Below, in pieces: positions 10,293 to 11,906 of a stretch of DNA of 13,475 bases. This stretch comes from Candidatus Woesearchaeota archaeon. GTDB taxonomy: Archaea; Nanobdellota; Nanobdellia; Woesearchaeales; UBA10216. The notes beneath the pieces are model-generated. The model did not search any database and was not told the origin of the DNA. It saw nothing but the letters and a program-made list of their open reading frames with translations. Each line of letters opens with the position of its first letter. The stretch's first letter is position 1. Made by a program: the position numbers and the translations under genes. The stretch spans positions 1 through 13,475 of the forward strand of contig JACPBX010000012.1 of assembly GCA_016180085.1 (NCBI GenBank), written 5' to 3'.

Positions 10293-11906
10293 TTACTCTC
10301 CGTAATCGTTGAGGTTTATCTGGCCCTTTCTCTTGCCTTCTTTTATGACCTCAGTTTTTTCCCCGAGCTGCTGCTTTATGTCAGCTGCCAGCTTTCCGCT
10401 GCCGAGAATTTGGGTCAGGGTGCTTACATCAGCGGCTCTAACATCGGCAAGATTCTTTATTCTGCTGCCAAACAGTTTTCTGGCCCTCACCCTTCCTATC
10501 CCGCGCAGCTGCAGCAGCGGCAGCAGTTCCTCTTTGACACCATATTGGACCCTGAACCTTACCCTTGCTATGTGCCTCAGCAGCGGCTGCAGCTGCATAA
10601 GCTTTGCAAGCTCTGAGGCTGAGTAAAGCAGCCAGTCGGCGTTGCCGAGCTTTGAGTGCACTTCACCTGGCCGTATCCCGTACTTCTCAAGCAGGTATTC
10701 CTCGTCCTTTTCCTCAATCCACTCCTGGAAAAACATTGACGTCTTTACAGACGCAAGAAAGTCATCATAACCCTCCTCAAACATCGATGGCTCGTCAACA
10801 AGCAGGGTTTCGGCATGTTCTGCCAGCGCCTGTTGCATTTCCTCGGCTTCCCTTACTTTGACGCGAAGCAATGGCCGCATCTCAAGCGTGGAAGATACCA
10901 GCTGCAGCAGCGGGAAAGGATTAAGCCCCTCTTTCGGCAACGGCCTCTTTGCAAGCCCCAGCATTATCTCATGCGCTGTCAGGGGGTCTATGTAAAGCTG
11001 GGCGACCCTTTCTCCAAGCAAGGTTGGCTTTATCATTCCATCTTTTATTTCAGCTGCTGAGGTGAAATCGCTGCTGTTTCCGCTGCTCCTTACGAATTCC
11101 CACTCTTCAAGCAGCAAAAGCATCTTGTCAATTGTCCTCTCAAGCTGCTTAAAGTCCTTGAACTGGTGCGCCCAAAACGTTTTCGCAAAGAATTGCATGA
11201 TTTCTTTCCTGTTTCCGACAAACCTTGTGGCAATCAGCGACAGCAAATAGGTTCTGAGCACCGGCTCAACAGCGAGCTTTGAAAAAATCGGCTCAGGCTC
11301 GCCGTGAATGTAGCGCTCGGTGACCTCTTCCTCCAATGATTCAGAATCAGCCAGGATTATTGCCTGGCCCTCGCTGTCAAAGCTTGGCCGTCCGGCCCTC
11401 CCGCACATCTGGAGGTATTCAAGCACAGGTATCCAGTTTGAGCCGCCATAGCCGTAGCCGCTTCTCTCGGAAAAGCGCTTTAAATCTCGGATTACTGCCC
11501 TGAAAGCAGGCAGGTCAACACCCGCTGCCAGTGTGGGTGTGCAGCAGATTATCTTTATTGTCCCGCTGCGGAAATTGTCCTCAATCAGTTGCCTTTGCTT
11601 CGATGTAAGGCCGCTGTGGTGGAACGCTGTTCCTCCCTTAATGCACCTCGCTAGCCTTTCGCACTGCTTCGTCGGCCTTGAAAGGGCATGCAGGGCCTCG
11701 TCTGAGGCAGCAACGAGCTTTTCACTGCTTAGTTTCAAATGATGCGCTATTTCCTCTGCCGACTTTTCCGCAGACTGCCTTGTGCCCACAAACACCAGGG
11801 CCTGCTTCCCGATTTTCACTGTGTCAAGGGCTATGTTGGTTACAGGGCTTGAGGTTAACTCATTAACTGCGAGCTTTCCTTTCCTCTCTGCAGAATCCAT
11901 GGGCAA
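10293..11906 (-). CDS. hel308: Hel308/Hjm (Ski2-like SF2) helicase, C-terminal part only (RecA2, winged-helix, ratchet, HhH); start TTG 11906 or ATG 11900
   Basis: Motif IV LVFVGTRQSAE, AFHHSGL, motif V TPTLAAGVDLPA, motif VI QMCGRAGRP and the HhH LRGIGRVRARKL are present. There is no Walker A, DExH or intact motif III, and an in-frame TAA at 11951-11949 closes the frame upstream. Confidence 0.9.
   Translation of the reverse strand: MPMDSAERKGKLAVNELTSSPVTNIALDTVKIGKQALVFVGTRQSAEKSAEEIAHHLKLSSEKLVAASDEALHALSRPTKQCERLARCIKGGTAFHHSGLTSKQRQLIEDNFRSGTIKIICCTPTLAAGVDLPAFRAVIRDLKRFSERSGYGYGGSNWIPVLEYLQMCGRAGRPSFDSEGQAIILADSESLEEEVTERYIHGEPEPIFSKLAVEPVLRTYLLSLIATRFVGNRKEIMQFFAKTFWAHQFKDFKQLERTIDKMLLLLEEWEFVRSSGNSSDFTSAAEIKDGMIKPTLLGERVAQLYIDPLTAHEIMLGLAKRPLPKEGLNPFPLLQLVSSTLEMRPLLRVKVREAEEMQQALAEHAETLLVDEPSMFEEGYDDFLASVKTSMFFQEWIEEKDEEYLLEKYGIRPGEVHSKLGNADWLLYSASELAKLMQLQPLLRHIARVRFRVQYGVKEELLPLLQLRGIGRVRARKLFGSRIKNLADVRAADVSTLTQILGSGKLAADIKQQLGEKTEVIKEGKRKGQINLNDYGE

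Follow-up and report, generated by a model that had tools for sequence, protein, structure and literature searches.

A woesearchaeal Hel308 divided between two unlinked genes by a cut inside the RecA2 lobe, probably encoding a two-subunit helicase

Superfamily 2 (SF2) helicases are regarded as motors built from a single chain, the geometry of the ATP site being set by the covalent link that joins the RecA1 and RecA2 lobes. Split genes are also a known trait of DPANN archaea. The stretch of DNA analysed here (the window; 13,475 nucleotides (nt)) is the entire contig C37 of a woesearchaeal metagenome-assembled genome (MAG) of 998,598 bases in 45 contigs, 83% complete, and on its reverse strand it carries an open reading frame (ORF) that resembles the archaeal DNA helicase Hel308 from the RecA2 lobe onwards and has no RecA1. 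What does such a gene encode, and where is the rest of the motor? Here we describe a second, distant gene for the other part, locate the cut between the two and follow it through the order to which this genome belongs. We propose that the gene in the window probably encodes the large subunit of a Hel308 DNA helicase that works as a heterodimer, with a small subunit produced from a separate, unlinked gene.

The ORF at 10293–11906 is open for the 537 codons counted in a preliminary description of this DNA, a number that holds when it is taken from the TTG at 11906. The ATG at 11900, which gives 535 aa, is judged from the alignment to be the likelier start because all relatives have a methionine at the aligned position, the TTG being the alternative. 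A TAA 14 codons 5′ of the TTG closes the frame, and pip (proline iminopeptidase; TIGR01249, 323 bits) starts divergently at 11979, which leaves 72 nt to the TTG or 78 nt to the ATG; the TAA and the 72-nt distance were read correctly at the outset. A Pfam search of the ORF returned Helicase_C, HTH_61 (winged helix), Helicase_dom4_arc (ratchet) and HHH_5 and found no DEAD domain, and the NCBIfam Hel308 models (NF002654 and NF040935) align to it only from position 223 to position 714 of 739. In the same Pfam and NCBIfam searches, no Q motif, Walker A, DExH or SAT motif was found on this polypeptide. Inspection of the motifs, together with the Pfam matches, upheld what had been recognized from the sequence without database searches, namely that motifs IV, IVa, V and VI and the winged-helix, ratchet and helix-hairpin-helix regions are present and that the Q motif, Walker A and DExH are absent. 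When aligned to Pyrococcus furiosus Hjm (PDB 2ZJ2; the other reference structures were 2ZJ5 from the same species, 2P6R from A. fulgidus and 2VA8 from S. solfataricus), the ORF covers residues 229–712 (E 1.7e-89), and its motifs IV, IVa, V and VI are invariant in an alignment of 26 relatives. The features of this gene, hereafter the C half, are as follows, in window coordinates.

10293–11900, reverse strand: C-half Hel308 coding sequence, 535 aa, with the TAA stop at 10293–10295; matches NF002654 positions 223–714 at 455 bits
11301–11900, reverse strand: RecA2 lobe, aa 1 to about 200, aligned to Hjm 229 to about 399; the first two β-strands of the lobe are encoded on the other gene
11787–11801, reverse strand: motif IV, ALVFV; L35 and F37 invariant in the C-half alignment
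11607–11624, reverse strand: motif IVa, FHHSGL; F93, H94, H95, G97 and L98 invariant; Hel308/HELQ signature F/YHHAGL
11508–11540, reverse strand: motif V, TPTLAAGVDLP; site of a LAGLIDADG intein in some relatives
11385–11411, reverse strand: motif VI, QMCGRAGRP; Q164, G167, R168, G170, R171 and P172 invariant
11091–11300, reverse strand: winged-helix domain (domain 3), PF20470, aa 197–272 in the numbering from the TTG
10539–10913, reverse strand: ratchet domain (domain 4), PF21280, E 3.5e-31
10392–10520, reverse strand: helix-hairpin-helix domain (domain 5), PF14520 match below its cut-off, aligned to Hjm up to residue 712

Motif VI supplies the arginine fingers for the ATP that is bound by RecA1, and its arginines contact the ATP γ-phosphate. 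At the other end of the lobe, the first five or so residues (MDSAE) form a new N terminus, and KLAV (aa 9–12) is the aligned counterpart of strand three in the full-length fold. Motif IVa is used here as defined in PMC10484726.

A search of the source genome with the Hel308 models gave three matches: the C half, a 222-aa ORF on contig C23 and one weak match. In this 45-contig, 83% complete assembly the search found no second full-length copy of Hel308; C23:37565–37939, considered as a further copy, proved to be the first part of a gene for a CshA-like DEAD-box RNA helicase that runs off the contig. The 222-aa ORF places RecA1 elsewhere in the genome, which was one of the possibilities raised in the preliminary description.

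Contig C23, 11140–11808 (L002:1501–2169), reverse strand: N-half Hel308 coding sequence (RecA1), 222 aa; matches Hel308 positions 1–220 at 291 bits

This N half carries the Q motif, Walker A (TPTASGKT), DEIH and SAT, ends in WRPVRLHQGVYRDGAITFKK immediately before its stop codon, and matches 2ZJ2 at E 3e-66. It contains RecA1 together with the first two β-strands of RecA2, and its motifs Q, I, Ia, II and III are invariant in the N-half alignment across order-level divergence. Because the C half is the sole Helicase_C domain found in the source assembly, no alternative RecA2 partner for the N half is visible there. Against the NF002654 equivalog cut-off of 887 bits, the C half scores 455 and the N half 291, so that neither reaches it; full-length relatives in sister orders, at 605–791 bits, also fall short, which makes the cut-off strict for this class.

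We then located the cut. Both halves align collinearly with full-length Hel308 of sister orders, with no residues lost: the N half runs as far as residue ~220 of a 719-aa full-length relative, and homology of the C half begins opposite residues ~221–222. In the AlphaFold model of this relative (mean pLDDT 86.3), strands 205–212 and 215–219 are followed by a loop at 220–223 and a strand at 224–226, which leads through a helix to the motif IV strand, and the pLDDT of 64 for block 221–230 is the minimum for the N-terminal region. Given a low-confidence loop between strands, the modelled position of the cut is in a flexible, four-residue surface turn. The C half had at first been described as lacking its whole RecA1 domain and being otherwise intact; RecA1 is indeed absent, but the cut lies between motif III and motif IV, about 18–20 residues inside RecA2, and not at the RecA1/RecA2 border. 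In P. furiosus Hjm, domain 1 comprises residues 1–197 and domain 2 starts at 198 (PMC2636818); residue 198 is the W of WRPV and aligns with W203 of the N half, which therefore has about 20 residues of RecA2. In a model of the N half by itself (pLDDT 89.6), the hairpin of strands 211–214 and 217–220 is retained, and the model superposes on Hjm over 221 columns with a TM score of 0.91 and an r.m.s.d. of 1.9 Å. This C-terminal hairpin is conserved throughout the order, with the consensus GIYxDGxIEF and with G211, Y213 and F220 at 90% or more. Little sequence surrounds the cut: N halves extend 0–2 residues past the homologous point, C halves begin with about 5–12 non-homologous residues, and neither cut end shows an added domain, a zipper or any other sign of a new interaction module. 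At the level of aligned sequences, these comparisons show that one ancestral hel308 gene was split inside the four-residue turn without any loss of sequence.

The same split is found at the same site in almost every sampled relative of the order, as would be expected of the divided gene suspected from this one sequence. In the sample of nearest genomes (40 genomes of one order, from 17 families and 28 genera), both halves were found in 35, whole or cut by contig ends and always at separate loci, and a class-wide sample added 12 further families of the order with the same split, bringing the total to about 30 families. Closed or near-closed genomes have the halves 37 kb apart on opposite strands (G039), 93 kb apart (G053) or 334 kb apart (G094). 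All 28 N halves compared are 217–223 aa long and stop within three residues of one site, and about 60 independent public assemblies that include upstream DNA show the same boundaries for the C-half ORF, as do single-contig genomes. Of 66 public loci that extend 700 nt or more upstream of a C-half homologue, 61 lack RecA1 in that DNA. The remaining five do have it; they are full-length genes and the most distant of the set, at 45% identity or less. In the other orders of the class, where Hel308 is present it is mostly encoded by one gene of about 705–760 codons. In a tree of the C-terminal region, a branch with an SH-aLRT support of 99 has the split forms on one side, and the split forms do not have longer branches than the unsplit ones. 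This topology fits a single fission at the base of the order, apparently without later relaxation.

Two observations on individual congeners concern the C half. One congeneric MAG has two C-half copies (G005:C41 and G005:C74; L004/L005, JACPIJ01), 93–94% identical to the C half described here, which could mean that the bin mixes strains or that the gene was recently duplicated. The C-half ORF of G006 (contig C11; L159:184–2346) is 721 aa long, with a C-terminal extension of ~185 aa that has no Pfam match.

Compared with congeners (Nei–Gojobori, dS 0.4–2), dN/dS is 0.05–0.11 for the N half and 0.06–0.11 for the C half; estimated in this way, both halves are under strong purifying selection, and relaxed selection, which the preliminary description had allowed for, is contradicted. 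The TATA-like element that it had noted upstream of the C half is present and forms part of a candidate promoter.

11923–11937, reverse strand: C-half promoter; TATA-like ATTAAAAA (11923–11930), 22 nt before the ATG, preceded by purine-rich CGCAACA

In most of 28 relatives, a TATA-like box after a purine-rich stretch lies about 22–30 nt before the ATG of both halves. The ~22-nt distance to the C-half ATG implies a leaderless or near-leaderless mRNA, and the sequences imply separate, putatively leaderless transcripts for the two halves, each gene having its own start, stop and predicted BRE/TATA promoter. The spacer at 11907–11978 (72–78 nt) holds back-to-back TATA-like boxes, that of the C half on the reverse strand and ATATTTAA at about 11944–11951 on the forward strand, both ~22–28 nt before their ATG; the box on the pip side is conserved in congeners. 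Comparison of the neighbours of both halves revealed no operon context conserved beyond the genus. Within the genus, the C half is flanked by pip, PTH2 and orf119, and the N half by a VapB-like/PIN pair. Upstream of the N half (L002:2391–2852, on G000:C23) are a MazE/AbrB-like antitoxin and a 73-aa PIN-domain ORF, which are kept throughout the genus.

From these data we propose that the two Hel308 proteins would assemble after translation. As secondary structure and homology suggest, the β-hairpin at the C terminus of the small subunit would dock on RecA2 beside the KLAV strand of the large subunit, which would restore the RecA2 sheet and tether RecA1, replacing the covalent link. RecA1 would also pack against the ratchet domain, closing the Hel308 ring. 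The ATP site would then lie between polypeptides, with Walker A and DEIH contributed by the small subunit and the motif VI arginines by the large one, and the assembled pair would work as an ordinary 3′–5′ Hel308 at stalled forks and in the control of recombination. As no interaction module has been added at the cut ends, the affinity between the subunits would have to come from pre-existing intramolecular contacts. We know of no role for motifs V and VI without RecA1, nor of one for the RecA2 hairpin alone on the N half. The strongest argument for assembly of two proteins is therefore that the invariant motifs V and VI and the orphan hairpin, functionless in isolation, have been maintained. 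Further points in its favour are the precedent of naturally split reverse gyrases (PMC4117796), which form active heterodimers, and the in-frame intein in motif V of some relatives, around which the C half stays intact.

An alternative that we consider improbable is that the halves are independent proteins, the C half serving as an ATP-independent DNA-binding or annealing factor or as a clamp, and the N half as a stand-alone ATPase or as the ATPase of some other partner. Hel308/HELQ does have an ATP-independent annealing activity governed by motif IVa, as reported in PMC10484726 and PMC13623763, and the two genes are unlinked and have no operon co-regulation. Three near-complete MAGs, moreover, have one half only: the N half in G033 (97% complete) and G150 (100%), and the C half in G112 (100%). 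Set against this are the presence of both halves in 35 of 40 relatives and the lack of both in another MAG that is 96% complete (G029); the five single-half cases among about 52 multi-contig MAGs match what incompleteness predicts, although this is a caveat and not proof. Independent roles also sit poorly with the invariance of motifs V and VI in the C half, the arginines that contact the ATP γ-phosphate included, and of motifs Q, I, II and III in the N half, with the conserved RecA2 hairpin that the N half retains, and with the assembly holding no other Helicase_C domain as a RecA2 partner. The preliminary description also considered an ATPase-dead, DNA-binding derivative; the invariance of motifs IV, V and VI, down to the arginines of motif VI, makes this unlikely.

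There may also be a small chance that RecA1 is a dissociable subunit, such that the heterodimer is an ATP-driven translocase and the large subunit alone an ATP-independent binding or annealing form. If so, the supply of the small subunit would set the switch, and this would be a natural SF2 helicase regulated by the assembly of its own motor.

It is very improbable that the two products are joined into one chain, whether by RNA trans-splicing or by a split intein. N. equitans PolB is a split-intein protein, which counts towards such joining. The same archaeon has trans-spliced tRNA halves (PMC3491384). Against joining, the ~5–12 extra residues of the C half and the 0–2 of the N half are far too few for intein fragments; since the cut ends carry no additional sequence, with no N- or C-terminal intein fragments flanking them, a split intein at the cut was excluded. 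Nor was a trans-splicing signal found in six genomes, in which complementarity between the 3′ flank of the N half and the 5′ flank of the C half was no better than in shuffled sequences, and, with its TATA box 22 nt from the ATG, the C half has no 5′ leader available for pairing.

Finally, although the source is a 45-contig MAG at 83% completeness, it is scarcely conceivable that we are dealing with a truncated pseudogene or with an artefact of a chimeric contig, given the identical ORF boundaries in ~60 public assemblies and in single-contig genomes, a dN/dS of ~0.1, a conserved promoter and a pip neighbour kept across the genus. On sequence grounds we regard misassembly, recent truncation and decay of the C half as excluded by the occurrence of the same cut in closed genomes, the dN/dS of 0.05–0.11, the invariant motifs and the TATA boxes that each gene has of its own; misassembly and a very recent truncation, both raised at first, also fall to conservation in about 50 genomes, including single-contig ones.

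The pair, which we thus read as the probable subunits of one enzyme, shows that a large and ancient archaeal lineage retains Hel308 with its two RecA lobes as separate gene products, and the split is a clean shared character of the order. If the heterodimer is active, it would offer a natural system in which to study what the linker contributes to the coupling of ATP hydrolysis with translocation, and also one for the fixation of split genes in reduced genomes. There are practical consequences for annotation: pipelines will label both pieces ‘partial’ or ‘DEAD/DEAH box helicase’, and surveys of DPANN Hel308 that filter on length or on a family cut-off will miss both halves.

Elsewhere in the window, Rfam detects a tRNA gene at 8638–8765 on the forward strand (RF00005, 47 bits). 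About 54 nt are inserted in its anticodon-loop region, and ARAGORN misses the gene. Adjacent ORFs at 4936–5729 on the forward strand have weak matches to DUF3368 (below its cut-off) and to UPF0175, and make up a putative toxin–antitoxin pair. Several long ORFs have no Pfam match (E ≤ 0.01 or 0.001): 946–2553, 7244–7942, 8905–9387 and 12957–13373 on the forward strand and 3917–4651 on the reverse strand, of which the first, at 535 aa, is the largest Pfam-less ORF in the window.

How does this Hel308 compare with known systems? Like archaeal Hel308/Hjm proteins, which are Ski2-like SF2 helicases, the woesearchaeal pair has all five domains and the helicase motifs in the same order; the difference is that it is encoded by two unlinked genes instead of one. 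The full-length Hel308 proteins of sister orders (for example, L143–L148, L155 and L156) are orthologous, with 37–47% identity to the C half and 45–64% to the N half, and are collinear across the cut, but each is one polypeptide of 705–745 aa. Some relatives, with split and unsplit genes alike, carry a LAGLIDADG homing intein (PF14890 and PF14528) in motif V of Hel308, at C-half residue ~124/125 and model position 340, in ORFs of 1023–1246 aa. Carriers include L158:378–3446 (G022:C25), G020 and L066, as well as the full-length genes of G080 and G129; the intein is in frame, and the C half around it is intact in the relatives that carry it. A literature search, with most subscription journals outside its range, found no description of a split Hel308: none is mentioned in a 2024 survey of archaeal Ski2-like helicases (PMC10946056) or in the accessible part of a 2026 review of Hel308/HELQ (PMC13623763).

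An independent fission of Hel308 occurs in a genome of another order (G137), in which two ORFs, of 385 aa (L151:354–1511, reverse strand) and 354 aa (L152:346–1410, forward strand), lie 25 kb apart on contig C4; that cut is at the RecA2/winged-helix border and leaves the ATPase motor on one chain. G046 resembles this case. Three other candidates from other orders (G067, G079 and G143) were rejected as Hel308 fissions, being contig-end breaks with overlapping or truncated frames. In Nanoarchaeota, a related phylum-level group, Lhr (‘large helicase-related protein’) is split into two genes (NEQ003/NEQ409; Nst 172/239; PMC3655853). Lhr, too, is thus an SF2 DNA helicase encoded in two genes, but it belongs to a different helicase family, and it is cut at different places in the two species, whereas the woesearchaeal Hel308 cut is fixed across the order. 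The split reverse gyrases of N. equitans (NEQ434/NEQ318) and M. kandleri (RgyA/RgyB) are active heterodimers (PMC4117796; PMC3655853) and, like the woesearchaeal Hel308, which is known from sequence, they are archaeal SF2-containing enzymes made from two genes. In the reverse gyrases, the cut separates the helicase module from the topoisomerase module or falls within the latter, and both RecA lobes stay on one chain; in the woesearchaeal Hel308, by contrast, the cut passes through the ATPase motor itself.
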